IMG/VR virus record: IMGVR_UViG_3300033997_000066
Span: 1 to 43,148 of that record
Strand: one strand, 5' to 3'
DNA length: 43,148 nucleotides
Source of the DNA: a virus
The position numbers were made by a program, and so were the translations under genes. Below the pieces are notes generated by a model that saw nothing but the letters and a program-made list of their open reading frames with translations, was not told the DNA's origin and made no database searches. Each line of letters opens with the position of its first letter. Position 1 is the stretch's first letter. Positions 1,520-43,148 of this stretch are shown here, piece after piece.

Positions 1520-1891
1520 TTATTCCACCACTATGCCGTCAAGGGTGATTGTCTGGCCGTCCGGCAGGTATTCGCCGGTCAGGTTTAATTCGATTCGGCC
1601 GGGTTCTGCCGCCACTGCCTGGACACTTTCCAGCTTGAACCTTGGTTCCCAGCGCTCCAGTGCTTCGGCCGTGGCTGCGTACAGGTCCAGCAGCGTGGTG
1701 CGGTTCATCGGCGCGTCGATCAGTCTGAACAGCCGGCTGCCGTACTCGCGGCGCATCACGCGGCTGCCGATAGGCGTCCGTAGAATGTCGCTGATGGATT
1801 GCCGCAGGTGCTGCAGGCCGCCCAGTCGCTTGCCGGTCGATGCGTTGATTCCGTCCATGCGCGCCATTCTGCGGGGCAGGCTGGCGCGCAT
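1520..1891 (-). CDS. Baseplate assembly protein W (GPW/gp25 family)
   Basis: 123 aa. The segment GKRLGGLQHLRQSISDILRTPIGSRVMRREYGSRL matches the P2 gpW signature. The true start may be the downstream Met (MDGINAS...). Confidence 0.9.
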   Translation of the reverse strand: MRASLPRRMARMDGINASTGKRLGGLQHLRQSISDILRTPIGSRVMRREYGSRLFRLIDAPMNRTTLLDLYAATAEALERWEPRFKLESVQAVAAEPGRIELNLTGEYLPDGQTITLDGIVVE

Positions 1892-1908
1892 CCTCTTGGG
1901 CTTTTTCC
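1891..1908 (-). repeat. 18-mer GGAAAAAGCCCAAGAGGA, copy in the V-W intergenic spacer
   Basis: Plus strand reads tcctcttgggctttttcc. The copy nearly fills the 19-nt gap between the gpV stop (1913..1911) and the gpW ATG (1891..1889). Its last A is the A of that ATG. Confidence 0.95.
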
Positions 1909-4366: not shown

Positions 4367-6388
4367 TTAGGCCGGCTTGCGGCCCAGGCAGAACGACTGC
4401 AGGCGGCGCAGGACGAAATCCACGTCCTGGAACACCACGATGCGCAGCTTGCCCTTGGTGCTGTTGCTGTACGGGTCCACGGTCAGGTCCAGGCCGCCCC
4501 ACAGACCGATAATCAGGTCAGCGAAGTTGCCCATGAACACGTCGCCGTTGGCCACCTGGTTGGTCACGTCGGTGCCGTAGCCGTTCACGGTGTTGCCCTG
4601 TTCCCACACCGGGGCGCCGTTGGTGCCGGTGAACTTCTGCGTGGTCTTCAGAGCGCCGCGCATGCGGGCGTTCATGATGTAGGCCATGCTGTCCACGTCG
4701 GCGTTGTCGGCCGCGATTTCGGTTTCCATCTGCACCAGCTCGGCGTAGGTGGGGTTCACAGCGGCGAAGTTCACGGCGTTGATACCGGTGTAATTCGCGA
4801 TGCCGCGCGGCTGGTTGGCGGTGCCGGTGCCGTAGTAGCCGGCCAGGTCGATGGTGGTAGCCAGCGCCGAAGCCAGGTCGGAACGCACCAGCCCTTCAGC
4901 GTCCAGGCTCGACTGCTGCAGGAACTTGCGGGTGATTTCGGTAAACGCGCCCACGGTCTTTGGCGACAGGCTGATTTGGTCAAGGTCCGGAGCGCCTTCG
5001 CCTGCGGCTTCGTCTTCACCCAGCCAGTAACCCTGTGCACCCGCGATCTGGCGCGGAATGTCCAGGTTGCCCACCAAGCCCGACAGCACGCGGCCGCGCT
5101 GCATGATGGTGTTGCGGTTGCGCAGCATTTCCACGAACGACTGCGACAGCAGGTCGGTGGCGATGGCGTAACCACCGGTATTGCCTGGGGCGCCGCCAGC
5201 GGTCGAAGTGTTCAGGGCGCGCGACAGCACGTCGGTGGGGATCAGGATGCCTTGCGGTTCCTTGTCCGCACGCTCGGCGGCGGCGCGGCTGGCCTCAAAT
5301 TCGAAGGCAGCGGCTTCCTGGGCGCGCTTGTCGGTCGGGTTCACCAGGGCGCGCACGACGTTCAGGAACGAATAGTTGCGCACTTCCTTGTCGGTCAGGC
5401 CGATGTTCTGGTCTGCGGTCTGCTCGTTCAGCGGGCGGCTGCCGCGCTTGTTGATGTGGTCCAGGGCGGCGCGGGCGAATTCGTCGGTGGACTTGCCGTC
5501 CTTCACGAACTCGCGGGCCAGGTCGCTGCACTGGTAGCGCTCGCCCATTTCCAGGATGGACGCGGTGCGCTTGCGCTCGGCCTCGGTGCCGGAACGCTGG
5601 TGGCTGCGCACGTCGTCGCCGGCCTTCTCCAGGGTTTCCAGAACCTTGGTGATGTTGCCTTGTTCGTCCACTTCGGCGCGGACCAGGTTGCCAGCGGCAT
5701 CCCGCGTTACAATGATTTTCATGTTTCTGAATTCCTCAGACTTTGGCTGTTCAGTGGTCGCGCCACTTTCGACGGTGGCAGTTTGCGTGGGCGCGGCCTC
5801 GGGTTCCTCTTGGGCTTTTTCCATGCTGCGGCCCACGCCCACGGTGTGGTCGAACGGCACGCTGACCAGGGAAATTTCCAGCGGTTCCCAGTCGGTGATG
5901 CGGTAAACGTCGGTATCGTCGCGCGTCTCCACCAGCTTGGCACCGTGGACCCGGTAGCCGACAGAAACGTGCTTGCGAATGCCGTCTACAACGTCCTGGA
6001 AAATCTCATTGGCACGCGCACTTCGGCCGAAGCGCACCACCGCACGGCCCCGCCGGTCGGCTCCAATGGTGACGGATTCCACAACGCCCACCTGGTCGGT
6101 CCAGTCGTGGTCAACCAGCAGCGCCCCACCGTCGCGCAGACGGTCCAGGCGGATGCTTTCGGGGTTGTGGTCCAGGATTTCGATGCCAAACCAGCGTTCG
6201 CCCTCGAATTCGGACGAAAACGCCAGCTCTACGGTGCGCGCGTCAACGTCGAAGCTGCGAACTTCCATCACGCGCTGCAGGTCGCCTTTCGCGTTGAAGT
6301 CCGGCAGCGGCTTGTCGCCGTCGCGCGTCATGTAGGTGCCCACCAGGGCGGCAGCCATGACGGCTGCAGCAAGTTTACTCTTTCGCAT
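4367..6388 (-). CDS. Prohead protease (HK97/U35-S78 family) fused to an HK97-fold major capsid protein
   Basis: The N-terminal third (FDVDARTVELAFSSEFEGERWFGIEILDH...LLVDHDW.DQVGVVESV) is protease-like. The C-terminal ~400 aa has a coiled delta-like segment and an MCP body. I prefer ATG 6388 (MRKSK, GGAG 9 nt upstream) over the track GTG at 6403. Confidence 0.85.
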   Translation of the reverse strand: MRKSKLAAAVMAAALVGTYMTRDGDKPLPDFNAKGDLQRVMEVRSFDVDARTVELAFSSEFEGERWFGIEILDHNPESIRLDRLRDGGALLVDHDWTDQVGVVESVTIGADRRGRAVVRFGRSARANEIFQDVVDGIRKHVSVGYRVHGAKLVETRDDTDVYRITDWEPLEISLVSVPFDHTVGVGRSMEKAQEEPEAAPTQTATVESGATTEQPKSEEFRNMKIIVTRDAAGNLVRAEVDEQGNITKVLETLEKAGDDVRSHQRSGTEAERKRTASILEMGERYQCSDLAREFVKDGKSTDEFARAALDHINKRGSRPLNEQTADQNIGLTDKEVRNYSFLNVVRALVNPTDKRAQEAAAFEFEASRAAAERADKEPQGILIPTDVLSRALNTSTAGGAPGNTGGYAIATDLLSQSFVEMLRNRNTIMQRGRVLSGLVGNLDIPRQIAGAQGYWLGEDEAAGEGAPDLDQISLSPKTVGAFTEITRKFLQQSSLDAEGLVRSDLASALATTIDLAGYYGTGTANQPRGIANYTGINAVNFAAVNPTYAELVQMETEIAADNADVDSMAYIMNARMRGALKTTQKFTGTNGAPVWEQGNTVNGYGTDVTNQVANGDVFMGNFADLIIGLWGGLDLTVDPYSNSTKGKLRIVVFQDVDFVLRRLQSFCLGRKPA
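5805..5822 (-). repeat. 18-mer GGAAAAAGCCCAAGAGGA, copy inside the protease-capsid linker
   Basis: Plus strand reads tcctcttgggctttttcc. It is read in frame as E-K-A-Q-E-E (..SMEKAQEEPEAAP..). Confidence 0.95.
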
Positions 6389-8003
6389 TCTGCGGTGCTC
6401 CACTCGGTGCAGGTGCAGGTTTTTGGGGTTGCTTGCCCATGCTCAGCATGACCAGTTCGGTGGCGTCCTTTTCGTTGATGCCTTCGGCCACCATGGCGTC
6501 AATCATCGCGCGAATGTCGCGTGCGGTTTCGGCCCACAGGGTGGCCGGGTCCTTGCCCTGCTCGCGGATGATGGCGCTGGGGCTGGTCAGCATGTTGTTC
6601 TTGCTGTCCACAGCCGCGTCCACGTCGGCGCGCGGGTCGATCCACTGCCAGCGGCGTGGCTGCCAGGCCACTGCGCTGTAACGGTCGATGCGCTCGGGCT
6701 TCAGCGGGCGACCGCGAACGGTCAGCTTCCCGCCCAGCAGCGCGCGCGGCAACCAGGCTTCGAACACAGGCTGAATCAGGCTTTCAACCAGCCATTCCTG
6801 CAGGTCTTTCCAGTGCTCGCGTTCGTCCAGCGTGCCTTGCCGGATGCTGGAAAAGTTCACGCCTTCCAGGTCGCTCGACAGGTTGTTGTACAGGACGCCG
6901 AAACCGGCAGCGATACCGCGCAGCATGGTCTTGTAGAACGGTGCGAACTCGCCAGCCGGGTACTGCGGGTTCCATTCGTGCAGCTCGGCGCCTTCAGGCA
7001 GCACCGGGAAGGTGCCGGCTTCGGCGTCGATGCTCAGCATTTCCTGCACTTCGTCGTCGTCCAGGTCGTCCAGGAAGTCAGGGCGCTGGCCATCTTTCCA
7101 CTGGATGAAGCCCATTTTCGACGCACCCACGCGGGCGTTGATAATTGCCGCGTCTTCCATGCCGTTCAGGTGGCGCATGCGGAACAGGCCGGTGGCCATC
7201 CACGGCAGGCCGCGTTTCTGGCCCACCATGTCTTCCAGGAAGCCATGCACAATGTCGTCGGCCGGCACGCGCACGAAGTTGCGGCCGCCAAAGCGGTATT
7301 CAGATTCGCGTTCGTCGGTGGTGGTGAACAGGTAGAACAGCGGCCGGCCGTACTTGTTGAACTCGATGCCTTGCTTAATGAAGGTATCGCGGCCGGTGCG
7401 TTCTTCGTTCACGTCCACAGGGCAGCGCTGCGGGTCCAGCACCTGCAGGGCGAAGCCCCACGGCCCAGCGTCGCGGCCATAGATCAGGCGCACCATGAAT
7501 TCGCCGTCTTTCACGGCGCTGTTCACGCAGCCGGCCTGAATGGCGCGCCAGGAACGCTTGCCGGTCACGTCGCAGTTCTTGCGGTTGCCCCAGGCTTCAA
7601 ACCCAGCCTCAATGGCCTGGTTTGCCAGGGTGTCCAGCTTGCCCCTGTCGTCGCGGCTTTGCGCCTGCAGCTGCACGCCCTGCGGCCCGACGATGTTCTG
7701 GCGGCACATGCGCAGGAAAGACTTTGCATAGTCGTTGTTGCTCGACTGCTCGCGAGAGCGTGCCACAAGGATGCGCTGGTTGCGGTCCACCACCTGGTCG
7801 GCGGTCAGCGGGGTGCTGCCCCATTCGGTGCCGAAGCGGTCAGCCTTGCCGGCCGCGTACATGCGCGCGTGCACCCGGCTGCGCAGCGGCAGCCCCTGCT
7901 TTGGCGCACCGCCGCTTGTGTTCTGCTGCGGTTGGATCAGCGGAACGCCGGAACCCGAACGGGAAGCTGCGGCCTTTTCCTGCGCGATCTTCCACGAATT
8001 CAT
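6375..8003 (-). CDS. Portal protein, lambda family
   Basis: 542 aa. Position between the gpW-like and protease genes fits. The sequence pattern is that of a lambda gpB-type portal. Confidence 0.9.
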   Translation of the reverse strand: MNSWKIAQEKAAASRSGSGVPLIQPQQNTSGGAPKQGLPLRSRVHARMYAAGKADRFGTEWGSTPLTADQVVDRNQRILVARSREQSSNNDYAKSFLRMCRQNIVGPQGVQLQAQSRDDRGKLDTLANQAIEAGFEAWGNRKNCDVTGKRSWRAIQAGCVNSAVKDGEFMVRLIYGRDAGPWGFALQVLDPQRCPVDVNEERTGRDTFIKQGIEFNKYGRPLFYLFTTTDERESEYRFGGRNFVRVPADDIVHGFLEDMVGQKRGLPWMATGLFRMRHLNGMEDAAIINARVGASKMGFIQWKDGQRPDFLDDLDDDEVQEMLSIDAEAGTFPVLPEGAELHEWNPQYPAGEFAPFYKTMLRGIAAGFGVLYNNLSSDLEGVNFSSIRQGTLDEREHWKDLQEWLVESLIQPVFEAWLPRALLGGKLTVRGRPLKPERIDRYSAVAWQPRRWQWIDPRADVDAAVDSKNNMLTSPSAIIREQGKDPATLWAETARDIRAMIDAMVAEGINEKDATELVMLSMGKQPQKPAPAPSGAPQNAKE

Positions 8004-8545: not shown

Positions 8546-10597
8546 TCACCAGCTGTTCACCCATCCACCGCCACGTCGCTTGCCAGGCTTCTGGCCCAGC
8601 GACTTGGCGCGCTTAATAGTGGGCTTAGTCTGCTGGGGTTGCGGCGCTGCATCCTCTTGGGCTTTTTCCACCTGCTCGGCGTTGTCGTTCGCGGGCGCCT
8701 CGGGCTTCGGTAGCGGTGCCGGCTTCCTGCGCTGGACTGCTGCAGGCGCGGCCTGGCCCAAGCGCTCGGCAAGGCGTTTAAACGATGGGTTCATGATCTT
8801 CAGCGCCGCGTATGCGTACACGCGGCAGTCCAAGCCTTCGTTTCGCGCGCGGTCGGGCTTGTGCCACTCGCGCACCGGCTGGCCCTTGATGTAGCGGGTG
8901 ACCAGCTTTTCAGCCGTCAGCTGCTTATACCAGTCTTCGTCACGGTCGTTCGGGGTGTGGCAGTAGCCGCCACCACCAGGCTGCTTGGCGCCGACAGTGG
9001 ACGCCAGGCGGCGCATGACAATCAGCTTGGCTTCGTCAACGCCGACCAGGAACAGGTCAACTTTCCGCGCGTTCTTGCCCGACTGCTTGCGCTGCGGCTT
9101 CTCCACGATGGGCTTGCCCCAGCCTGGCACGCCCTTGCCCGCGAACAGGCGGCGACCGGTGCGACCCTTGGCGTAGTCGTAGGCCGCCTGGGTCATGCCG
9201 TTGCTGCCGCCAGTGTCCAGCAGGGCAGCGCTGATGGGCAGGTGGGCGCCGCTTTCGTGCTGGTAGGTGGACGCCAGCAGGTCGTCCAGGTCTTCCCACA
9301 CGTCGCCTTGCTCGGGTGCGCCCCACAGCACGTAATAGGCCACAGACCACGATTCCTCACCGACGCCCCAGGCCACCACCTCAACTTCCAGGCGGTCCAT
9401 CTGCTGGTCAATGCCTGCGGTCAGGTACAGGCCACCGGCCGGCACTTCGGCGCGGTATTCTTCGGCGCGAGCCATTAGCCCTGTGGGGTCTGCCTTCTCG
9501 CCCTTTTCTTCGTAGGTTTCGGCCAGGCTGACGTTGACGAACGACTGCAGGTCGTCCACCGCCAGCTTGTCCAGGTACGACTGCACAATGTCGCGCAGAC
9601 GCCGGAACGTTGAAAGCATTTCAGGTGCGTGGAAGCTGGCGTGGCCCTTGAACGGCTTGGCGGCCTTCCAGCCGGCGCCCAGCTTCTCGGCGTTGCGAAT
9701 GGCTGCGATGCGCTCGCCGTCGTCCCAGTAGGCGCCGCAGCTTTCGCAGGCGTACAGGGCTGTGTCGGGTTCGTGCTCGCGCCCCTTGTCGTATTCGGCG
9801 TCGGCAATGCCGGTGGACTGCCGGCCCTTCCAGGTGACGTTTTCCCACTTCAGGTACTGGTGGTGCTGGCAGTGCGGGCACGGCACGTAATAGCGCCGCT
9901 GGTCGCCTTCCAGAAAACCGGTTTCGATCCGGCTGGCGCCCTTGATGGTTGGTGTGCTGGACCTGGTGGACAGGGCGTCATCGCCGAAGGTGGCGGCACG
10001 CTGCGCCAGCAGCTCTACCGGGTCGCCTTCGGCCGTGGCTTCCATGCCGTCCACTTCGTCGGCCTGGGTGATGGGCGCCGAACGGCCGCGCAGGGTCTTG
10101 GGCGAGCCTGCCCAGCTGAACATCAGCCACCCGCCGATGTACGAAATGATGCGACTGTTGTTCACGCCCTCACGGCCGCGCTGCTTGGCCATCTTGCTGC
10201 TGATGGACGGGTTGGCGTCCAGCATGGGGCGCAGCTTCGTTTCCTGGAACGTCTGCACGTCGCCCTGCGTCGGCTGCACGAATATCTGCGAACGCGGTTC
10301 GTGCGCGATGAAATAGCCGGTGATGCACTGCTGAATGGTGGTCTTGCCCAGCTGGGCGCCGGTCATGTAGTCGGCGCGCCTGATGCCTGGTTCTTTCACC
10401 ACGTCCAGCATGCCGCGCTGATAGGGCGCGTTATCGAACCGTATAGGCCCCGGCTTCGCGTTGCCCACCGGAATGCGCACGTTGTCTTCAGCCCACTGGC
10501 TCGGCAGCATCCTTGCCGGTGGCACCAGGTTCTGCATGGCGCGGTGCATTGCTGCCACCACGCCGCGCAGGTTGCTGAACTGGTGGGCCTTAGCCAT
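8546..10597 (-). CDS. Terminase large subunit (lambda gpA family)
   Basis: 683 aa. The N-terminus (..LPSQWAEDNVRIPVGNAKPGPIRFDNAPYQRGMLD...MTGAQLGKTT) is a GpA-type Walker A region. It ends in a Pro/Lys-rich C-terminal tail. Confidence 0.95.
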   Translation of the reverse strand: MAKAHQFSNLRGVVAAMHRAMQNLVPPARMLPSQWAEDNVRIPVGNAKPGPIRFDNAPYQRGMLDVVKEPGIRRADYMTGAQLGKTTIQQCITGYFIAHEPRSQIFVQPTQGDVQTFQETKLRPMLDANPSISSKMAKQRGREGVNNSRIISYIGGWLMFSWAGSPKTLRGRSAPITQADEVDGMEATAEGDPVELLAQRAATFGDDALSTRSSTPTIKGASRIETGFLEGDQRRYYVPCPHCQHHQYLKWENVTWKGRQSTGIADAEYDKGREHEPDTALYACESCGAYWDDGERIAAIRNAEKLGAGWKAAKPFKGHASFHAPEMLSTFRRLRDIVQSYLDKLAVDDLQSFVNVSLAETYEEKGEKADPTGLMARAEEYRAEVPAGGLYLTAGIDQQMDRLEVEVVAWGVGEESWSVAYYVLWGAPEQGDVWEDLDDLLASTYQHESGAHLPISAALLDTGGSNGMTQAAYDYAKGRTGRRLFAGKGVPGWGKPIVEKPQRKQSGKNARKVDLFLVGVDEAKLIVMRRLASTVGAKQPGGGGYCHTPNDRDEDWYKQLTAEKLVTRYIKGQPVREWHKPDRARNEGLDCRVYAYAALKIMNPSFKRLAERLGQAAPAAVQRRKPAPLPKPEAPANDNAEQVEKAQEDAAPQPQQTKPTIKRAKSLGQKPGKRRGGGWVNSW
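8652..8669 (-). repeat. 18-mer GGAAAAAGCCCAAGAGGA, copy inside the TerL C-terminal tail
   Basis: Plus strand reads tcctcttgggctttttcc. It is read in frame as E-K-A-Q-E-D (..EQVEKAQEDAAPQ..). Confidence 0.95.
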
Positions 10598-13518: not shown

Positions 13519-13706
13519 TTTAGCCACCCGCGAGCAACGAAGAACTGGCGAACAAAGCGCTTCCACGCCCATTCACCGATCAGGATTGCGGAATAGCAGA
13601 AGGCCAGGAAACTGGCAGCTTCTGCCCACGAAGTGATGCCGACTGCTGCCCATGCGGTCGCAACTTTGGCGACTGGGGCGGCGATAGTTTGGGCTTGATC
13701 GTTCAT
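13515..13706 (-). CDS. Holin (two-TM, pinholin-like)
   Basis: 63 aa with two hydrophobic helices and a basic C-terminus. It lies immediately upstream of the SAR endolysin. ATGA overlap with the Mor-like stop. Confidence 0.65.
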   Translation of the reverse strand: MNDQAQTIAAPVAKVATAWAAVGITSWAEAASFLAFCYSAILIGEWAWKRFVRQFFVARGWLK

Positions 13707-14155
13707 TGACTGGTGCGCGCCAGGTTGTTGAATACTGGCGAAGTGTTGTCGTTCGCCGCCTGTAATTCCTCTTGGGCTTTTTCCCGCATCAGGTTGCGCA
13801 CGTGACGGTCAGAACAGCCCATCAGCTCGGCCACGTCTTTGGCCTTCATGCCGCTGCTTGCCATGTCGATGATGGCGCGGTCACGGAACGCGCGGTAAAC
13901 CTCGGTGCAGCTGGCCGGGTTCAGTATCTCGCCACCGAACGCATCAACCAGGCGCTGCGCGTCGTGCCACCCAAGCAGCTGCACCAACTGATGGTCAGGC
14001 TTCAGGGTCTTGGGCACGTACAGGATGACATGCCAACTGGTCTGCTTGCTGTTCTTGCGGGTCTGGTAGGAGCGTGGCAGCTGGCCAATCAAGTATAACG
14101 CACGTTCACGCCCGATAACGTCGGCTATCTCTTGAGCACTCGCAGGTAATCGCAC
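13703..14155 (-). CDS. Mor/C-family late transcription activator
   Basis: 150 aa. FGGEILNPASCTEVYRAFRDRAIIDMASSGMKAKDVAELMGCSDRHVRNLMRE matches the Mu Mor pattern GG..vYiP....RD..I......G.....La...g.s...V. It is the first gene of the late cluster. GTG start with AAGGGG 7 nt upstream. Confidence 0.7.
   Translation of the reverse strand: MRLPASAQEIADVIGRERALYLIGQLPRSYQTRKNSKQTSWHVILYVPKTLKPDHQLVQLLGWHDAQRLVDAFGGEILNPASCTEVYRAFRDRAIIDMASSGMKAKDVAELMGCSDRHVRNLMREKAQEELQAANDNTSPVFNNLARTSQ
13767..13784 (-). repeat. 18-mer GGAAAAAGCCCAAGAGGA, copy inside the 3' part of the Mor-like gene
   Basis: Plus strand reads tcctcttgggctttttcc. It is read in frame as E-K-A-Q-E-E (..LMREKAQEELQAAN..). Confidence 0.95.
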
Positions 14156-16190: not shown

Positions 16191-16220
16191 CGTCTTGCCC
16201 TCCAGGGCGTTATTCGTTTC

Positions 16221-16275
16221 GTTGAAATGATTATCGGCGTTTACCTAAGTAAACAGCCAATTGATTGTTTCTATC
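16221..16275 (-). promoter_or_regulatory. Conserved intergenic element A (putative internal promoter/operator)
   Basis: 46 of 55 nt are identical to 24291..24345, including an exact 18-mer gtaaacagccaattgatt. Read on the minus strand it is TTGGCT - 19 nt containing the palindrome GTTTAC-N4-GTAAAC - GATAAT. Confidence 0.45.
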
Positions 16276-16320: not shown

Positions 16321-18606
16321 TCAGAACGGTGCGCCTTCGCGCTCGCTGTATTCTGGCGGCATCTTGAACAGCCGTTTGCTGCCGGACTTCCTGGGCTTGT
16401 CGCCGGTCAGCTTCTGCAGCAGCCGGCTGCAGTCGGTGGCCTGGGTCTTGGTCGGCCTGTCGAAGCCAACCGACAGCAGCACGTCTGTGGCCGTCAGCTC
16501 GCGGCCCATGCCCTTTCGCGCCCAGTCGAAGCGCTGCAGCAGCATTTCTTCCAGCGGGTCGATGGCTTCGTGCTCGCGGTTGACGCCTTCCAGCGCGGCT
16601 TCCTCGTCACGCTCCAGCCACCAGCGCTCACCGTCGCGGAACAGCGCGGCGACTTCGGCCCATAGCTGCTGCACGTCAATGTCGTGCGTGTAGTTCACGC
16701 CGACTACCGGCACGGTCCACCAGCGCACGTTACCGGTTTCGTCGGCCAGGAAGCGTTCAGGGTTCACGCTCGCGAAGAACACAGTTCGGCGCTGATAGCG
16801 CGATTCCAGGCGGTCATACGGCCGGCGCAGCATGTCCACGTCTTGGCTGATAAACGCCTTCAGCTTCGCAATGTCGGCCTTCCTGAAAGTGCCGTCCAGC
16901 TCGCCCAGCTCGACCATCCAGTGGCCAATGGCGCTGCTGATGCTGTCCTTGTTGGTCGGGTCGATGTTGGCGCCGACCTTGATTAGCGTGCGCTGTTCCT
17001 GCGGCACCAGGGACTTGAACCAGGCGGTTTTGCCCAGCGACTGTTCGCCCTGCAGCACCAGCACGCCCTTGGACCAGAAGCCATTCGGCAGCAGGGCAGC
17101 TGCAGCGGCCGATACCAGCCAGCGGCGCAGCAGCAATTCCAGCAGCTCGCGGTCGTAGCCTGGCGCAGTCTCCAGGGTGTCGCACACGTCCTTCAGCCGG
17201 CTGATGCCGTCCCAGGGCCTGGACATGATGAATTCGGCCACCGGGTTGTAACTCTGCTGGTTCGCAATCAGCTTCAGGTAGTCGCCAGTGTCGGCCTTGG
17301 GCATGCGGTTGCGAGCGCACAGGCTGTTGATTTCGGCCAGGGCGCAGTTCGCGGCCGCGTCGCCACCGTAGTTACGGCCAGGGATGACCACGGCCACGTC
17401 CTTGCTGATGATGTTGTACCGCGCGGTGATGCCGTATTGCTCCAGCAGCCACTGCAGATTTTCCCACGTGTTCAGCGGCTGCTGACGGTCGGACAGGTGC
17501 GGGAACATGAACGGGTTGACGCTGCTGTCCAGGTCCAGGTGGTTGTCGTTGGCGGCCTTCGGGATAACCGCGTTGATCTGCTCGCGCACGGCGTCGATGC
17601 CCTGACGCTGGTGCAGGTCGTTGAAGTCGGTGGGCTTGCCGTCCAGGCTTTCGAACTCAGGCACCACCAGGATGGCATTGGCCGAACTGGCAGCCTGGCG
17701 GCCGTAGTGCACGCCGTCGTTGGTCTGGCCGGGTTTGTGGAATTGGTCGTTGTCCACGGCCACCAGGATGGTGGCGGCGCCGAACAGCTCGCGCATGGCC
17801 CTGGCGATGTTCGGCACGTTGCCAGCGTCGAACGCCACAGCCACGCAGTGACCGGTGGCCATGTGGATGCTGGCACCAGTCGAATAGCCCTCGCAGACGA
17901 CGATGACCGGGTTGCCGCCCATTGGCTTGCCACCCAGCATGAAGAACGCGCCGCGCTTCTGGCCGCCTGGCAGGTAGTCGCGGTCGCGGCCGATTTCGGC
18001 GTTGTCGTTGACGAAGATGGCCTGCAGGCTGACCAGGTGGCCGTCGATGTTCTGGATGGGCACCAGCAAGGCTTCCTGGCCGTTGCGCCACTTGCCGATG
18101 CGCAGCCCGAACGACAGCACGCCCTTGCGCTGCAGGTATGGGTGGTCATCGCCTTCAATGTCGTGCGCCAGGTCCCACATGGTCTTTGCACGTTCGGCCG
18201 CCATGGCGCGCTTGCGCTCACGCTCGGCCCGCTCGGCTTCTTCCTCGGCCTTGCGCTTGGCGCGGCGTGCCTCGATGGCCGCCTGGTCGATAGGCTCGCG
18301 CAGTTCTTCGTTCAGGCTGAACCCGAACTGGGTAGCCTCATGTATCAGGGTGGCGATGGTAATGCCGCCACTGGGCTTAATCGACTTCCAGGTGTCGCGG
18401 GCGTCAATGCTGTTGTAGGACTTGCCCGACTTGCTCCATTCGTCCCACAGCGCGAAACCTGCGTTGCCCAGCTCGGACTTAACCGCCATGCCGATGCGCA
18501 CCCATTCGTCACGGCTGCAGCCGGCGTCAAGGTACGTCAGGGCCTGGGCAATCTCGTCCTCGGTAAGGTCGCGGTAGGAATTCGCGCCCGTGCTCATTGG
18601 TTTCAT
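16321..18606 (-). CDS. Bifunctional primase/NTPase: PriCT-2 N-terminus, Toprim domain, VirE/D5-like P-loop domain
   Basis: 761 aa. PriCT-2-like: LDAGCSRDEWVRIGMAVKSELG..GFALWDEWS. Toprim: VVCEGYSTGASIH...ILVAVDND. Walker A: VLVLQGEQSLGKTAWF. Confidence 0.9.
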   Translation of the reverse strand: MKPMSTGANSYRDLTEDEIAQALTYLDAGCSRDEWVRIGMAVKSELGNAGFALWDEWSKSGKSYNSIDARDTWKSIKPSGGITIATLIHEATQFGFSLNEELREPIDQAAIEARRAKRKAEEEAERAERERKRAMAAERAKTMWDLAHDIEGDDHPYLQRKGVLSFGLRIGKWRNGQEALLVPIQNIDGHLVSLQAIFVNDNAEIGRDRDYLPGGQKRGAFFMLGGKPMGGNPVIVVCEGYSTGASIHMATGHCVAVAFDAGNVPNIARAMRELFGAATILVAVDNDQFHKPGQTNDGVHYGRQAASSANAILVVPEFESLDGKPTDFNDLHQRQGIDAVREQINAVIPKAANDNHLDLDSSVNPFMFPHLSDRQQPLNTWENLQWLLEQYGITARYNIISKDVAVVIPGRNYGGDAAANCALAEINSLCARNRMPKADTGDYLKLIANQQSYNPVAEFIMSRPWDGISRLKDVCDTLETAPGYDRELLELLLRRWLVSAAAAALLPNGFWSKGVLVLQGEQSLGKTAWFKSLVPQEQRTLIKVGANIDPTNKDSISSAIGHWMVELGELDGTFRKADIAKLKAFISQDVDMLRRPYDRLESRYQRRTVFFASVNPERFLADETGNVRWWTVPVVGVNYTHDIDVQQLWAEVAALFRDGERWWLERDEEAALEGVNREHEAIDPLEEMLLQRFDWARKGMGRELTATDVLLSVGFDRPTKTQATDCSRLLQKLTGDKPRKSGSKRLFKMPPEYSEREGAPF

Positions 18607-24253: not shown

Positions 24254-24290
24254 TTTGGGTTGTTTCCTCTTTCTTGATTAATGTTGTGTT

Positions 24291-24345
24291 GCTGAAATGA
24301 TTTTCGCCGTTTCCGTCCGTAAACAGCCAATTGATTTTCTCTATC
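24291..24345 (-). promoter_or_regulatory. Conserved intergenic element B
   Basis: Same element as 16221..16275. On the minus strand it reads TTGGCT - 19 nt with GTTTAC-N4-GGAAAC - GAAAAT. It overlaps only the helicase stop codon. Confidence 0.45.
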
Positions 24346-25747
24346 AGCGCCGCCGCCCAGCATGAACTTTGCGCGCCCACGCCATCGGCGCCGCGTACCC
24401 GCGTTTGCGCCCAAGGGTCACCAGTTCGTCAAGCGTTTTGGCCATCGCCTGTTCAGCCTGCAGGCGCGCCCTGGTGGCTTTCTTGTCGGCCTCGCTCAGT
24501 TTCTTCAGCTCGCCTTCGGCTACGGCCTCGGGCTTGTATTCCGCCACCAGGCGTTTGTCGCAGTGCGGGCAGCACTCGGGTAGCGGCCGCTTGATCTGCC
24601 TGAAACAGCCCTCGCAGGTGACTGGCGGTGGTGGCCCGTTGTCGTTCGCTGCCTTGCCGCCACCGCCGTTGCCGTCCAGCGACCAGTCGCGCACGTCGTC
24701 AGGGAAGCCGTGGCGCGAACTGTTGCCCGCGTGGTCCAGAATGATGCCGGTCTTCCCAGGCTTCGGGCGCATGCAGCGCATGGATTCCTGTAGGTACTTG
24801 GACAGCGATTGCGTGGGGTTAGCCAGTATCACGGCGTCGATGGTCACAGGCTTGCCAGCCCAGGCCGACAGGTCGAAGCCCTCGCCGAATAGGCCGACGT
24901 TCCACAGCACCTTCACCTTGCCGTCTGCATAGTCCTTGATGGTGCGCTGCCGTTCGCCGTCGTCGGTGCCGCCGTCCAGGTGCGCGGCTGGAATGCCGGC
25001 CATGTTGAATTGCTGCGTCATGTACTGCGAGTGCGCGACGTTCACCGCGTAGCCCACAGTCAGCAGGCCGTCAGCGTGCTTGCGCCAGTGCGAAATCATG
25101 TCGCCGGTCAGCTTCGGTTCGCGCATGCGCTGTTCGCTGTCTTTCTTGGCGTAGTCGCCCATCTGCTTGCGCACGCCCTTCATGCTGGGTGCGCCTGGGG
25201 CGAAAATCTCATACGGCGCCAGGTTGCCCATGGCGATCAGCTCGGCCGTGGTTGGACCCAGCACCATTTCATCGAAGTATTCGCCCAGGCCGGTGCCATC
25301 CAGGCGCCACGGCGTGCCGGTCAGGCCGATGTGCTTTGCGTTCGGCCACGCCTCCATGATGGCTGCCCATCCGGCTGCGCCGATGTGGTGGCATTCGTCC
25401 CATATGACGGCGCGCGGCTCTGGCAGCTTCAGAATGCGGTTCTTCAGCGTGTCGATGCTGCACACCTGGGTCAGCGCATTGACGTACATGGGCCGTCCAG
25501 CCGCGATGAAACTGTGAGGTAACCCGCAGTCGTTGAACGTGCCGCTGGTCTGCTTCAGCAGCTCGGCACGGTGGCAGTTGAAGAACGTCTGCCTGCCCTG
25601 GCTGGCGAATGCCTGGGCGATGAAAGCCGCAATGACGGTCTTGCCACCACCAGGCGGCAGCACGACCAGGACGCGGCGAACACGGCGCAGGGCCTGGCCG
25701 GTGCGGGCCACAAGGTCCTGCTGATAGTCACGCAAACTAATAGCCAT
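24344..25747 (-). CDS. Superfamily-2 DEAD/DEAH-box helicase with a C-terminal zinc ribbon
   Basis: 467 aa. Walker A: LPPGGGKT. Motif II: VIWDECHH. C-terminal zinc ribbon: CEGC...CCPHC. Confidence 0.9.
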   Translation of the reverse strand: MAISLRDYQQDLVARTGQALRRVRRVLVVLPPGGGKTVIAAFIAQAFASQGRQTFFNCHRAELLKQTSGTFNDCGLPHSFIAAGRPMYVNALTQVCSIDTLKNRILKLPEPRAVIWDECHHIGAAGWAAIMEAWPNAKHIGLTGTPWRLDGTGLGEYFDEMVLGPTTAELIAMGNLAPYEIFAPGAPSMKGVRKQMGDYAKKDSEQRMREPKLTGDMISHWRKHADGLLTVGYAVNVAHSQYMTQQFNMAGIPAAHLDGGTDDGERQRTIKDYADGKVKVLWNVGLFGEGFDLSAWAGKPVTIDAVILANPTQSLSKYLQESMRCMRPKPGKTGIILDHAGNSSRHGFPDDVRDWSLDGNGGGGKAANDNGPPPPVTCEGCFRQIKRPLPECCPHCDKRLVAEYKPEAVAEGELKKLSEADKKATRARLQAEQAMAKTLDELVTLGRKRGYAAPMAWARKVHAGRRR

Positions 25748-36699: not shown

Positions 36700-37206
36700 T
36701 TAAAGGCCCAGTGCGCGGCGCATGGCCGCCAGCACGTCGATGCCGTTGATGACGCGAACCATGTTTTCGGCGTCCACTTCGTGGATAGTGCGGCCGTCGT
36801 GCGTCAGTTTGTAGTAGGTCAGGGTCATGGTGGCCTTGAGCAACGGCATTTCGCCAGGCTTGCTGGTGCCTGGGTCCAGCTCGGTAATCTTGCCGCGCAT
36901 GTTGTGCACCACGGCCTTGGTGGTGCCGTCGAACGACTCCAGGCCCTCGCGCACGGTCAGCGGCACGACACTGCCAGCAGCCAGGCCGAACAGCGCCAGC
37001 ACGTCGCGGTCGAAGGCGAACAGGCTGAAGTCGCAGACCATCTTCTGCATGCCCATGGTCACGTCGATTGGCACGTCCATGCCGCCAGCGCGAAATTCTT
37101 CCTCAACGGTCGCCAGCTTGGGCGCGTTGAATTCGCTGACCTGGCCGGCGTAGCCCCGGCCATCCACGGACAGAGTAAAGTTTTTCCGAACGTCGCGAGC
37201 GGCCAT
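36700..37206 (-). CDS. Major tail tube protein (P2 FII-like)
   Basis: 168 aa. The pattern is F.L.VDGRGYAGQV.EF..PKL...EEFRAGGMD.P......GM.K... Confidence 0.9.
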   Translation of the reverse strand: MAARDVRKNFTLSVDGRGYAGQVSEFNAPKLATVEEEFRAGGMDVPIDVTMGMQKMVCDFSLFAFDRDVLALFGLAAGSVVPLTVREGLESFDGTTKAVVHNMRGKITELDPGTSKPGEMPLLKATMTLTYYKLTHDGRTIHEVDAENMVRVINGIDVLAAMRRALGL

Positions 37207-38642
37207 TATTCGAAAATCTCCGTGATGTAGTCGTTAACGATACGGCTTCGCATGATGATGTGTTCGGCCGGATAAACAGGGGTGAAATCAAAGTCGAAGT
37301 ATACCTTACCCTGCGCGATCTGGTCAGGCGTGTTCACGTCAGGGTCAGCCCAGCAGGTGCCGCCCAGGATGGCGCCGATGGTCACCAGGTGGCGCAGGTA
37401 GGCGTTCACGCCTTCCACCACGTCTTCCACGTACTGCTTGGTGATACCACGGTCCACGGCCCACAGGTGGTTCGCCATGATGCTGTCGTTGATGATGTCA
37501 GCAGTACGGCGCACGCACAGGAAGGCAAAGCGCTGGTCACTCGACAGCGTGCGGTTGCCCCACAGGCGGAAACCGTCTTCGCGAATGATGGTCGCAACCT
37601 TCATTTCGTTCAGCAGGTTGGCGCGTGCGTTCGCATCTCCCAGCGTGAAGTCGATAGGGCGCGCGGTGCCCTGGATGCCGTTGATGGTCTGGTTGGAAGG
37701 CGACCACCAGAACCCGCGCTCGTTGTCGATCTTGGCAATCAGACCGGCGACAGCAGGGCTGGCCCACTCGGTGACGGTCGTGCCGGTGCTGTCGGTCTTG
37801 ATGACCTTGGGGTCAACCAGGTACACGCGAGCACTGCCGAAGTCGCCAGCGTAGCCGATGGCGTCGGCGTCGTTGGTGTTCGGACCATCGGCGATGATGA
37901 CGGCGCGCAGGCGCTCGGCAATGCCGATCAGCTCGGCCACCACGGCGTTGCCGACGATGCCGAACGATGCAGTGGCCGCAGCCCCGGTGCCGCCACCGCC
38001 AGTAAGGGCGACGGTCGGCGCGCTGGTGTAGCCGCTGCCGGCCTTGGTCACGCGAATGCTGGTGACCTTGCCAGCATTGGCACCAGTGCCCAGGACGGCT
38101 TCAGCGGTGGCGCCAGTTCCACCACCACCGGTCAGGGCGACAGCCGGGGCAGTGGTATAACCGGTGCCCTGGTTGGTCATGGTGATGGCGGTAACGCCAC
38201 CGGCCACGCGGGTGTGCGTGAAGCCAGGCGCCAGCAGGATGCGAGGCTGGAAGCCCACCACCGACTTGGCTCCCAGGAATGCGTGCACGCCTTCGTACTG
38301 GCCATTCACGGCGTTGACGCCGCCCAGGATGTTGGCCAGGGTTTCGGCGTCGGTTTCGCCTTCCTCGACGCGAACGACGATGACCACGGCGCCGGCCTGG
38401 TCAAAGATGCCATCCATGGCAGCAGGCAGGGTGCCTTCGCCAGTGCCCAGCAGGTCCAGTTTCGCGGCCTCACGACGGCTGCCGGCGATCAGAACAGGGG
38501 TGTTCAGCGGGAACGCCGAAGCGTCCGCGTTAGGTGCGGTGCCGATCAGACCGATTACGCTGGAACGAACGGTGGAAATCGGGCGTGGTCCAGCGTCGAT
38601 TTCGATAACCTCGACGCCATGAAGAAAAGTTTCGCCAGCCAT
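37206..38642 (-). CDS. Contractile tail sheath protein (P2 FI-like) with an ~80-aa internal insertion
   Basis: 478 aa. N-terminus: [30 protein letters not shown]-terminal part: ..[15 protein letters not shown]. Confidence 0.95.
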
Positions 38643-38711
38643 GTTGTGTGGGCCTCGATAGACGCAGGATTAGGAAGCGTGCCGGAATGTTCGCAGCTGG
38701 CGCGGCGCGGT

Positions 38712-38729
38712 TCCTCTTGGGCTTTTTCC
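38712..38729 (-). repeat. 18-mer GGAAAAAGCCCAAGAGGA, intergenic copy upstream of the sheath gene
   Basis: Plus strand reads tcctcttgggctttttcc. It starts 5 nt downstream (minus sense) of the terminator U-tract and ends 69 nt upstream of the sheath ATG. Confidence 0.95.
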
Positions 38730-38734
38730 AAGCA

Positions 38735-38759
38735 TAAAAAAGCCGCCCCGAAGGGCGGC
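38735..38759 (-). terminator. Strong intrinsic terminator after the tail fibre genes
   Basis: Minus strand reads GCCGCCC-TTCG-GGGCGGC followed by TTTTTTAT. Confidence 0.8.
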
Positions 38760-38777: not shown

Positions 38778-39443
38778 TCAGGTCTTGATGATGTGATTCA
38801 GCACTATGGTGGGCTGCGTGTTGTTGTGCGCGCCGCCGCCGCCAGCATTCTGGATGCTGATGCCGGTGCCGGCAGCATAGATGCCAATGCCGGTGCCAGC
38901 GGCCGCAATGCTGATGCCAGTGCCGCTTACGCTAGTGCTGCCGGTCAGGTGGTTGTTCGCCGTGCCAACCTGCGAGCCTTGCCCGTTGGCGACGCTTACG
39001 CGGTCATAGGTGTGCGAGTGGCCAGGGTCATAGACGCCGTGCGCGTGGCCTGGGTCGTATACGGTGTGCGCGTGGGTCGGGTCACTGACGCCGTGCGCGT
39101 GCAAAGGCATCTGCGGCACAGTCAGCGCGTGGGTTTCAGCACCACCAGCGGCGCCAAGCGTGGCACCGTTGACGCCGGAAGCGCCTGCGGCCAGTCGGCT
39201 GGCGGCCGTGCCTCCCATGTTGTCTTTGCCGGCCGCCACTCGGCCGCGCAGGTCAGGAAGGTTGAACGTGGTGGAGCCGTCGCCAGAGCCATAGGTGGTG
39301 CCGACGACCGCGAACAGGTGGGCATGTGCCGTGCGACTTACCGCCTGTCCATGGCAAAGCATCCAGCCATCAGGTGCGACAGCGCCAGCAAACGGCAGCA
39401 CCACACCACAAAGGCCGAAGATAGATTGTGTCGCTCGACTCAT
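38778..39443 (-). CDS. Tail-collar domain fibre protein (MdpB-like) with an HxH repeat
   Basis: 221 aa from ATG 39443 (ATGA overlap with the upstream stop). The collar motif is PDGWMLCHGQAVSRT.HA.LFAVVGTTYG.GDGSTTFNLPDLRGR. The His repeat is HAHGVSDPTHAHTVYDPGHAHGVYDPGHSH. The longer track ORF is rejected. Confidence 0.8.
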   Translation of the reverse strand: MSRATQSIFGLCGVVLPFAGAVAPDGWMLCHGQAVSRTAHAHLFAVVGTTYGSGDGSTTFNLPDLRGRVAAGKDNMGGTAASRLAAGASGVNGATLGAAGGAETHALTVPQMPLHAHGVSDPTHAHTVYDPGHAHGVYDPGHSHTYDRVSVANGQGSQVGTANNHLTGSTSVSGTGISIAAAGTGIGIYAAGTGISIQNAGGGGAHNNTQPTIVLNHIIKT

Positions 39444-42940: not shown

Positions 42941-43148
42941 TCAACTCTCCACAGTTCGAAGGAAACCGGACTCTGTAATCCGCTGCGCACCATCAGCTGT
43001 AAGGCGCGCTATCAGCGATTCATCTTCCCAGCCCAGCGGGTAAATCGTTGTGTCCGTCACGTCTTGACTGGCAGAACCGAAGAACAGCTGGCCCATACTG
43101 TCCAGTGACAGAATCTGGTACGGGTAGACCGTAGTGTCGTTGCCATCC
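42941..43148 (-). CDS. Baseplate/tail protein I, 3' part (stop TGA at 42943..42941); 43022..43148 duplicates 1..127
   Basis: Reading downward from 43021 in the frame inherited from position 1 gives ..WEDESLIARLTADGAQRITESGFLRTVES-stop. The complete gene is join(42941..43021,1..627), 235 aa. Confidence 0.8.
   Translation of the reverse strand, partial: DGNDTTVYPYQILSLDSMGQLFFGSASQDVTDTTIYPLGWEDESLIARLTADGAQRITESGFLRTVES
43022..43148. repeat. Terminal direct repeat, copy 2
   Basis: Identical to 1..127. Confidence 0.95.

Follow-up and report, generated by a model that had tools for sequence, protein, structure and literature searches.

With a probability of about 80%, the 18-nt word GGAAAAAGCCCAAGAGGA is the activator-binding box of five late promoters, read most likely by a small Mor-like protein encoded by the same virus. 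The window, i.e. the whole stretch of 43,148 nt of viral DNA that was analysed, contains five exact copies of the word, every one on the minus strand (Table 1). In dinucleotide shuffles, matches with 3 mismatches or fewer average 0.02, and none of 100 shuffles reaches five. The element is most likely the upstream half of a promoter, a name that the initial annotation had not given it, and would belong to five late promoters of a small P2-tailed phage, three of them hidden in coding sequence. It is a phage control element of an ordinary kind that is new for this phage group; a literature search yielded no description of this motif, nor of such an element for the group.

Table 1. Predicted late promoters and associated features of the window, by position. 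Every box is an exact match to the word; box scores are from the weight matrix (PWM).
Feature	Position	Strand	Remarks
Baseplate W start codon	1856..1858	(-)	MDGINA.., 112 codons; conserved; 8 nt past T of -10 (7 nt between)
Inverted repeat	1858..1890	(-)	TGCGCGCC (1890-1883) / GGCGCGCA (1865-1858); encloses P_W -10, ends at A of W start codon
P_W -10	1866..1871	(-)	CAGAAT; 19 nt past box
P_W box	1891..1908	(-)	non-coding, directly past baseplate V stop; PWM 29.3 bits
Protease-scaffold-capsid fusion gene	4367..6403	(-)	678 aa; Pfam Peptidase_S78 95-190, Phage_capsid 410-674
Internal in-frame ATG	5720..5722	(-)	M228, MKIIVTRDAA; predicted start of nested scaffold-capsid product
Shine-Dalgarno-like sequence	5732..5737	(-)	GAGGAA; 9 nt before internal ATG
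P_capsid-internal -10	5780..5785	(-)	CAAACT; codons Q-T; predicted start near 5773
P_capsid-internal box	5805..5822	(-)	protease/capsid linker (M-EKAQEE-P); PWM 34.3 bits, best in window
TerL gene	8546..10597	(-)	Pfam GpA_ATPase + GpA_nuclease; P_head in its tail
P_head -10	8627..8632	(-)	CAGACT; codons Q-T; predicted start near 8620, upstream of head-tail joining and portal genes
P_head box	8652..8669	(-)	TerL C-terminal tail (EKAQED); PWM 32.0 bits
Candidate activator (Mor-like) gene	13703..14155	(-)	150 aa, C-terminal HTH, divergent Mor/C relative; PHROG 836
P_lys -10	13742..13747	(-)	AACACT; codons N-T of conserved AANDNT tail; predicted start near 13735, upstream of lysis genes
P_lys box	13767..13784	(-)	within last 30 codons of Mor-like gene (R-EKAQEE-L); PWM 32.2 bits
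Tail sheath gene	37206..38642	(-)	Pfam Phage_sheath_1 + Phage_sheath_1C; first gene after P_sheath
P_sheath -10	38687..38692	(-)	GAACAT (TGc before); 19 nt past box; predicted start near 38680
P_sheath box	38712..38729	(-)	non-coding; about -49 to -32 of predicted promoter; PWM 31.6 bits
Intrinsic terminator	38742..38759	(-)	GCCGCCCTTCGGGGCGGC + T-run; ends tail-fibre operon just upstream of P_sheath

Three of the five copies are coding and share a common phase. The initial annotation had placed them in unrelated ORFs, in the same frame and always in linkers or tails, which phase and Pfam domain maps of the three proteins confirm: all three lie outside Pfam domains. The TerL copy (..EKAQEDAA..) covers codons about 643-648, GpA_nuclease ending earlier, at residue 605 of 683; the copy in the protease-capsid fusion (..SMEKAQEEPE..) covers residues 195-200, between the two annotated domains; and that of the Mor-like protein (..REKAQEELQ..) covers residues 125-130, just past the HTH (93-123). 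The shared frame stands as an observation, and it is weak as independent evidence: it is a 1-in-9 event (p about 0.11) that counts only once because the sites are orthologous across the family. The two remaining copies are non-coding, one between the baseplate V stop (TAG, 1911-1913) and W, the other past an intrinsic terminator and ahead of the sheath gene, whose ATG is at 38642.

The proposal that constraint acts on the nucleotides and not on the peptide, for which the non-coding copies had been invoked, holds on several grounds. The identical word is found in two non-coding places, and it lies at a fixed distance from a downstream hexamer (see below). Every related genome has a variant of its own, which it uses at all five orthologous sites whether they are coding or not. 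Within a genome, third-codon positions of the box are as invariant as the others (identity 1.00 at -34, -28 and -22; 0.98 at -25), and positions that differ between genomes are identical within each genome, third-codon positions included. Selection on the peptide E-K-A-Q-E-E itself, as a protease or assembly signal with DNA identity as a by-product, could explain the single frame in three proteins and the E-x-(A/P)-Q-E-E-like peptide kept in Mor-like homologues. Under such selection the peptide was expected to persist with varied codons. The non-coding copies contradict such selection; synonymous positions are as fixed as the rest within a genome, and the peptide shifts between genomes (EKAQEE, EKPQEE, ANPQEE, EIPREE, DKPQEE) together with the non-coding copies. 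Peptide selection is thus scarcely credible and, as judged from sequence, the word is a DNA signal.

At all five window copies the box is followed, at a distance of exactly 19 nt, by a weak -10 hexamer of the form nAnnnT (CAGAAT, CAAACT, CAGACT, AACACT and GAACAT). The family consensus of the box, G-r-A-A-A-n-C-C-G-C-C-A-G-A-G-G-A, extends from about -48 to about -32, where conservation ends; G at -48, C at -39 and G at -33 are invariant, and the 19-nt spacer is free sequence. Among 126 distinct sites from 34 loci, the hexamer has A at position 2 in 117 and T at position 6 in 116 (about 92%), and A is enriched 7-8 nt past the -10 T, at the expected point of transcription initiation. As an internal control, no -10 is seen in four loci whose seeds were spurious. 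A weight matrix for sites of 43 nt (e.g. 38687-38729 at P_sheath), built on other genomes with the window left out, retrieves precisely the five sites of the window at 29-34 bits, the next best scoring 8.8 and the shuffle maximum being 15.8. No -35 hexamer is found at the five window sites (best match 2/6, spacers 16-19), so that the host RNA polymerase should need a phage-encoded activator at the box. An extended -10 (TGn) is present at P_sheath only. Inspection of the window copy and of the family consensus against their reverse complements reveals no dyad symmetry in the box. Two sites are positioned directly after a terminator or stop codon and before operon starts. From this organisation, established by sequence comparison, we infer activator binding and transcription starts at the five sites.

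The same features bear on two other readings of the repeat. Strand-specific nicking sites are known in T5-like and phiKMV-like phages, and a non-transcriptional DNA site of this sort (nicking site, recombination hot spot, replication or packaging signal) would likewise have its copies all on one strand and perfect over 18 nt. Such a site has no need of a -10 exactly 19 nt on, whose two key bases are retained in about 92% of 126 sites, nor of an A-rich start point 7-8 nt further. It would also have no need to follow terminators and head operons, or to lie 42-66 nt ahead of an internal ribosome-binding site and ATG, both conserved. We consider it quite improbable. A signal acting at the RNA level, such as a Shine-Dalgarno-like AAGAGGA or a site for an RNA-binding or processing protein on late mRNAs, would agree with the purine-rich 3' half of the box, which resembles a ribosome-binding site, and with the presence of every copy on the transcribed strand. 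However, there is no conserved start codon 5-10 nt past the box; only the W copy in the window has an ATG after it, without spacing, and the conserved W start lies 33 nt further. The flanks are devoid of conserved structure outside the W sites, and what is conserved along with the box, at a constant distance, is a -10 hexamer, an element of DNA. An RNA signal is accordingly highly improbable. Among other promoter types, sigma-54 promoters were discarded by eye on the spacing of GG and GC, which does not fit, and T7-type promoters since no polymerase gene is annotated in four complete relatives and the conserved segment gives way to a sigma-70-type -10.

The predicted late promoter pattern recurs in related phages. 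In each of Mano, PPpW-3, Mica and ep3, five copies of a genome-specific box variant occupy these five places, all on one strand, and the opposite strand has no copy. Variants of their own, in these places and with unchanged spacing, are likewise found in relatives from Escherichia, Pseudomonas, Achromobacter and Burkholderia and in about 30 further metagenomic or prophage relatives found via the capsid protein. Sites in relatives were sought with 16-mer seeds allowing two mismatches, in replacement of 11-mer seeds (one mismatch) that were too noisy in GC-rich DNA. The order terminator-then-box at P_sheath is also found in Mano, Mica, PPpW-3 and ep3, where the orthologous -10 hexamers are gacaat (Mano and Mica), caacat (PPpW-3) and gaccat (ep3). 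At the place orthologous to the P_head -10, PPpW-3 has the identical hexamer CAGACT. A separate search of IMG/VR for the exact 18-mer gave 23 loci, of which only L007 and L010 belong to true relatives; the rest are unrelated prophage-like contigs.

The Mor-like protein is most likely the binder of the box. In all relatives examined, its gene is the one regulator adjoining the late genes; the first box lies within the 3' end of that gene, which immediately precedes the lysis genes, as does Mu C. The protein matches PHROG 836, 'late transcriptional activator', with E 6.9e-30. Pfam Mor (PF08765) is matched by 11 of 43 homologues (best E 8.2e-9) and not by the window protein itself, which has only sub-threshold hits to HTH_23 and Sigma70_r4_2. 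A profile search of PDB sequences with the Mor-like protein did not find Mor, its hhalign comparison to Mu C gave no match, and its AlphaFold model (pLDDT 82) had no significant Foldseek match, Mu C ranking tenth with E 1.1. Comparison by hhalign to Mu Mor gives E 0.025 and a probability of 1.9%, yet the alignment is collinear over GG / R-D-x-x-I / HTH. The NDN codons of the AANDNT tail, at the P_lys -10, are nearly invariant across the 43 homologues. The recognition helix shows rather little variation (xDRHVRN), in contrast to the middle of the box, and the 8 loci that have both gene and sites are too few to show covariation between the two. A close relative identified via the Mor-like protein is on a contig that ends right after the lysis genes, with no further sites there.

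The late promoters could be as described and their box be read by a different factor, either another phage DNA-binding protein or a polymerase modified by, for example, a TraR/DksA-like zinc-finger protein, which is annotated in relatives. This would be in line with the weak case for Mor/C membership of the candidate, with the asymmetry of the box, with the helix-box covariation that could not be shown, and with the other small HTH proteins that relatives encode beside the DksA/TraR-like protein. Against it stand the position of the Mor-like gene as sole regulator beside the late genes, with the first box inside it, and the match to a late-activator PHROG. That the box variants are genome-specific in hosts ranging from Escherichia to Burkholderia moreover speaks for a reader encoded by the phage. 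We regard a different reader as unlikely and favour the Mor-like protein as activator.

Several known systems resemble this arrangement in part. Middle promoters of T4 combine a MotA box with a -10 and use AsiA-remodelled sigma-70; the MotA box has its centre near -30 and is 11-13 bp away from the -10. As in the window, a phage-specific box takes the place of the -35 and is combined with a normal -10, but the end of the box is here 19 bp from the -10. In P2/186, the late promoters PP, PO, PV and PF are activated by the zinc-finger proteins Ogr/B. There too the activator-dependent late promoters are few and the tail genes have the P2-type order, with a promoter immediately ahead of the sheath gene and another within the baseplate block. 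The Ogr-type dyad TGT-N12-ACA, which P2/186 late promoters have about 55 bp upstream of the start, is absent from the 100 nt that precede each of the five -10 hexamers of the window. The window also differs from P2/186 in its candidate activator, which has an HTH and is no Ogr-type zinc finger, and in its predicted baseplate promoter, which lies between V and W instead of before V.

Parallels also exist with Mu. Its Pm promoter has a -10, no -35 (1-2 of 6) and an activator site overlapping the -35 region (PMC4287176). Pm, activated by Mor, and Plys, PI, PP and Pmom, activated by C, are used by host sigma-70 polymerase with a -10 and no usable -35, as would be the case here with 2/6 (PMC4287176; 10.1101/2025.05.02.651988). 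As at four of the five window sites, Mu promoters have no extended -10, and their activator site overlaps or abuts the -35 region. Both phages would have a handful of late promoters heading lysis, head and tail operons, with the activator gene directly ahead of the lysis genes. In Mu the activator sites form imperfect dyads with their centre at -43.5, that of Pm extending from -51 to -36, whereas the box of the window is asymmetric, about -48 to -32, with its centre near -40. Unlike in Mu, the protein is here at best a distant Mor/C relative and three of the five predicted promoters are inside coding sequence.

The box in the protease-capsid fusion is associated with a putative nested gene. 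The initial annotation had pointed to the in-frame ATG opening MKIIVTRD, with GAGGAA 9 nt upstream, and had found a separate internal capsid product conceivable. Both sequence elements are as it described, and comparison lends strong support to the product: an internal in-frame ATG is present in 28 of 28 distinct lineages, 42-66 nt past the -10. A peptide of the form M(x)EKILRDA is conserved after it, and in all 28 it is preceded at 7-12 nt by an SD-like sequence (by eye in printed flanks, unscored). This suggests a nested scaffold-capsid product from the internal start, whose use we infer. The internal promoter together with the conserved ribosome-binding site and ATG would yield scaffold-capsid protein in excess over the full-length protease-capsid fusion. 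Internal in-frame starts with their own ribosome-binding site are used in lambda C/Nu3, Mu I/Z and P2 O to make a shorter abundant product whose C-terminus is common with a longer protease-bearing product. The predicted start in the window would be of this kind. In contrast to the lambda C/Nu3 type, the common C-terminal part would be the major capsid protein itself plus a scaffold-like segment, and a dedicated predicted promoter precedes the internal start. In the paper on phage Murka, the homologous gene is given only as a single 684-aa propeptide (PMC10892653).

The start codon of baseplate W coincides with the predicted transcription start of P_W, so that the W mRNA would be leaderless. 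The same geometry (7-9 nt, no SD) is found in 20 other lineages, with an ORF of 112 codons in 19 of them and 102 in one; in PPpW-3, too, the W start is at the predicted transcription start. Leaderless mRNA is known from lambda cI transcribed from PRM, where the start codon is the transcription start and no Shine-Dalgarno is present. W would be similar, although it is a late structural gene, unlike cI. An inverted repeat surrounds the P_W -10, and its region has an MFE of -24.2 kcal/mol. When each sequence is folded against shuffles, W sites as a class have a mean z of -1.9 compared to -0.1 to -0.8 for other site classes. A consensus structure sought with RNAalifold for the W hairpin has no common pairs, since the stems differ in register between sequences.

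In the predicted transcription programme, the Mor-like gene, which lies immediately upstream of the late genes, would contain the first late promoter within its 3' end. P_lys would give the transcript for the lysis genes, which the terminase genes follow on the same strand, P_head that for the head-tail joining and portal genes, and P_capsid-internal that for the distal two thirds of the protease-capsid gene. P_W would drive expression from baseplate W onward, through the tail fibres, and P_sheath that of the sheath, tube and remaining tail genes. Three of the promoters would be written through ORFs, accommodated in linkers or tails where the box reads E-x-(A/P)-Q-E-E.

A more extended interpretation can be put forward tentatively, at somewhat less than even odds. 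Late gene dosage would be set by promoters within ORFs, the internal promoter and nested start fixing the ratio of protease fusion to bulk capsid protein. W would be made only from its leaderless transcript, its start codon being locked in a hairpin in read-through mRNA. A small protein whose HTH resembles sigma region 4 would recognise the asymmetric box, and its mode of binding would not be that of the dyad-bound Mor/C of Mu.

These assignments provide a predicted transcription map for a widespread and poorly characterised group of small myoviruses, comprising Jilinvirus/Iiscvirinae, Hiroshimavirus, Manovirus, Micavirus and many prophages and metagenomic contigs; Jilinvirus isolates are described as 'not well characterized' in the BASEL paper (PMC11990801). 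The apparent peptide motifs that are conserved in TerL, capsid and activator would be explained as DNA signals, and two annotation corrections are predicted, namely a nested scaffold-capsid product from M228 and a 112-codon W with a leaderless start. The system is a clean natural example of promoter and coding sequence sharing the same bases. The pair of box and activator is compact, portable and variable between genomes, and could serve as a source of orthogonal expression switches.

The 18-mer GGAAAAAGCCCAAGAGGA is present in the window in five exact copies, all on the minus strand, for a chance expectation of 0.02 matches with up to three mismatches allowed (shuffles of the window). The copies have unrelated flanks beyond one base on either side. 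The three coding copies lie in a single phase, are translated as E-K-A-Q-E-E/D and, according to Pfam domain maps, all fall outside the domains of their host proteins, as expected from the initial annotation, which had assigned them to linker or tail segments in one frame and had also recorded the two non-coding copies found in the V/W and terminator/sheath gaps. Every copy is followed at exactly 19 nt by a hexamer whose second base is A and whose sixth is T (5/5), and the best match to a TTGACA -35 element at spacers of 16-19 nt is 2/6 over the five sites. Judged from sequence, box plus hexamer is the signature of a promoter that requires an activator: a weak -10 and no -35. With a transcription start assumed 7 nt past the -10 T, the 18-mer would cover about -49 to -32. 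We favor, with a probability of roughly four in five, the reading that the element forms the upstream half of five late promoters that depend on an activator, three copies being overprinted on coding sequence. The starting observation was real and soundly reasoned.

Positions in the window of the boxes of the five predicted promoters, with the hexamers found 19 nt past them, and of other features
Feature	Position	Strand	-10 hexamer	Description
Box, P_W	1891-1908	-	CAGAAT	exact match; non-coding, between stop of baseplate V and W
Box, P_capsid-internal	5805-5822	-	CAAACT	exact match; coding, between S78 protease and HK97-type capsid domain of 678-aa fusion protein
Box, P_head	8652-8669	-	CAGACT	exact match; coding, beyond nuclease domain of TerL
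Box, P_lys	13767-13784	-	AACACT	exact match; coding, immediately past HTH of 150-aa regulator
Box, P_sheath	38712-38729	-	GAACAT	exact match; non-coding, intrinsic terminator on one side, sheath gene on other; sole site of five with TGn extension
Baseplate W start	1858-1856	-		ATG of 112-codon ORF, conserved start
W start geometry	1856-1890	-		
Internal capsid start	5722-5720			ATG (M228), GAGGAA 9 nt upstream
Candidate activator gene	13703-14155	-		150-aa protein
Conserved tail of candidate activator	13703-13790			
60-nt AT-rich elements	16216-16275; 24286-24345			82% identical; internal GTTTAC..GTAAAC inverted repeat
ORFs preceding AT-rich elements	16321..18606; 24344..25747	-		
27-nt-period repeats	38835-38925; 39009-39101			
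74-nt duplicated segment	39244-39317; 39936-40009			80% identity, 692 nt apart
Terminal direct repeat	1-127; 43022-43148			perfect, 127 nt

The genome groups with small myoviruses that have P2-like tails and a fused protease-capsid protein, among them Pseudomonas phage PPpW-3, Achromobacter phage Mano, Burkholderia phage Mica and Escherichia phages ep3, ECOO78 and ECO1230-10. The four complete relatives each carry five same-strand copies, and none on the opposite strand, of their own box variant (Mano, GGAAAAnCCGCAAGAGGA; PPpW-3, GGCAAACCCACAAGAGGA; Mica, GGAAATCCCACGGGAGGA; ep3, GACAAACCCCAAGAAGAA). The places are the same in these genomes and in the window: one in the Mor-like gene at its 3' end, one in the tail of TerL, one midway along the capsid fusion, one in the baseplate V/W gap and one past the terminator ahead of the sheath gene. 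The relatives retain the 19-nt spacing and the -10 hexamer, which is often identical at orthologous sites. Eighty more loci were fetched from IMG/VR with the capsid protein as anchor; a 16-mer from the capsid linker served as seed, other occurrences being sought in the same locus. About 30 lineages have this layout, strand-specific and with a lineage-specific variant, and the four loci with a spurious seed, which lack a -10 partner, provide a built-in control. Alignment on the -10 of 126 distinct sites from 34 loci gives the consensus G-r-A-A-A-n-C-C-G-C-C-A-G-A-G-G-A, 19 unconstrained bases and a -10 of the form nAnanT (A in 117/126, T in 116/126); A is enriched 7-8 nt past the -10 T, where the start site is expected. 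A weight matrix built from all genomes except the window recovers exactly its five sites at 29-34 bits, the next best scoring 8.8 and the shuffled maximum being 15.8. In the enterobacterial, Escherichia-type loci L004, L032 and L033 the box begins at its 5' end with TTGACA or CTGACA (e.g., TTGACAAACCCCAAGAAGAA); TTGACA is the sigma-70 -35 consensus, here about 32 nt from the -10 and too far for normal use, and may be a coincidence or a second polymerase contact.

The initial annotation had proposed that the nucleotides are constrained rather than the peptide, and the family bears this out. Positions -35, -34, -28, -26 and -22 relative to the -10 have an identity of 0.86-1.00 within a genome versus 0.45-0.72 between genomes, and in the coding copies several of them fall on third-codon positions. 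Between genomes the peptide varies (EKAQEE, EKPQEE, ANPQEE, EIPREE, DKPQEE) in step with the non-coding copies. Together these patterns place the constraint on the DNA. The conserved tail of the Mor-like family, R-E-x-x-Q-E-...-A-A-N-D-N (alignment A2), is the translated box and -10 region of the first predicted late promoter, so part of the apparent conservation of this protein family is a DNA signal. The shared frame of the coding copies, in which the -10 makes exactly two codons (Q-T, N-T, D-T or D-N), is a 1-in-9 coincidence inherited family-wide; no argument from stop codons was found that is strong enough to impose it. In L010, an IMG/VR relative whose Mor-like protein is 67% identical to that of the window, the Mor site has the window 18-mer unchanged and the TerL and capsid sites have GAAAAAACCCAAGAGGA; hence some box positions, around -43 and -42, can vary within a genome, which is also seen in Mano and locus L030.

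An in-frame ATG lies 42-66 nt past the -10 of the capsid-internal promoter in 28/28 distinct lineages, preceded at 7-12 nt by a Shine-Dalgarno-like sequence and followed by a conserved M(x)EKILRDA. The window start and its GAGGAA, already pointed out from the sequence, were confirmed. The obvious reading is that the protease-capsid gene would contain a nested gene: the full-length product would bring the protease into the prohead, and a shorter scaffold-capsid product would come in bulk from a promoter and a ribosome-binding site of its own. The one published account of the homologous gene that was found treats it as a single 684-aa propeptide (PMC10892653).

The W start lies 8 nt past the -10 T (7 nt between) and has no Shine-Dalgarno sequence; PPpW-3 is the same, and the distance is 7-9 nt in 20 other lineages. 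Overall, the arrangement is found at the corresponding place of L001-L004 and about 20 IMG/VR loci. As the start codon coincides with the predicted transcription start and lacks a Shine-Dalgarno sequence, baseplate W mRNA is predicted to be leaderless. For W, the start of the longest ORF (ATG 1891) and those annotated in Mano and PPpW-3 are probably wrong. An inverted repeat surrounds the P_W -10 and terminates at the W start codon, with which the hairpin pairs. W sites fold considerably better than the other site classes, with a mean MFE of -13.0 kcal/mol (z -1.9) versus -5 to -9 (z -0.1 to -0.8); the stem is retained across genomes with differing sequence and register. In read-through RNA the hairpin would hide the start codon.

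The candidate activator matches PHROG 836 'late transcriptional activator' (E 6.9e-30), its counterparts in the relatives carry the same annotation and its gene, like that of Mu C, lies directly ahead of the lysis genes. Pfam Mor is matched by 11/43 homologues (best E 8.2e-9), and the window protein hits only generic HTH and sigma-region-4 models of Pfam, below threshold. Profile search of PDB sequences did not recover Mor, and the AlphaFold model (pLDDT 82) has no significant Foldseek match, Mu C ranking tenth (E 1.1). With hhalign, the protein is collinear with Mu Mor across the hallmark GG, R-D-x-x-I and HTH, a statistically weak match (E 0.025), and does not match Mu C. No covariation between recognition helix and box was demonstrated, too few loci holding gene and sites together. 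Given these mixed matches, we name it a divergent Mor-like protein and infer its role as box reader, the confidence in the identity of the activator being lower than that in the promoters.

The terminal direct repeat most likely marks the overlap in an assembly that is circular or terminally redundant and gives a genome of about 43,021 bp, so that the window would hold the whole genome (about 43.0 kb), put together with an overlap. Each 60-nt AT-rich element lies just past the stop of a large minus-strand ORF; they could be early/middle promoters, operators or terminators. The 27-nt-period repeats and the 74-nt duplication lie in ORFs ahead of the sheath promoter that are presumed, from gene order in relatives, to code for tail fibres; they suggest 9-residue repeat units and duplication of a fibre module. 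The identical 18-mer is also found in unrelated prophage-like IMG/VR contigs (L009, L013, L018 and L021, tandem; L011, L014, L015, L017, L019, L020, L022, L025), most with a -10-like hexamer 19 nt on (ttaatt, ctaatt, tttaat, gaccat). These copies adjoin a divergent gene start and precede a small hydrophobic ORF; one group has directly upstream a second variant, GGAAAwCCCACAAGAGGA, with AAGAAT after 19 nt. No Mor-like ORF is present within the fetched stretches. This box type may be used outside this phage group.

Upstream of the five window sites the P2 Ogr dyad TGT-N12-ACA is absent, and the annotations of the four complete relatives include no phage RNA polymerase. The closest logic is that of phage Mu, whose Pm has a -10 but lacks both a -35 and an extended -10, and requires Mor, which binds a dyad spanning -51 to -36 (centre -43.5), C working similarly at four late promoters (PMC4287176; preprint 10.1101/2025.05.02.651988). 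The five window sites share this logic, but their box is about 3 bp nearer the -10 and is not a dyad, and on this defining feature they fall outside the Mu promoter family. A description of the motif was not found in the literature searched, full-text search of motif strings included. The element probably works in the same way as the Mu promoters; it is a phage device of a well-known type, in a form that has yet to be described.
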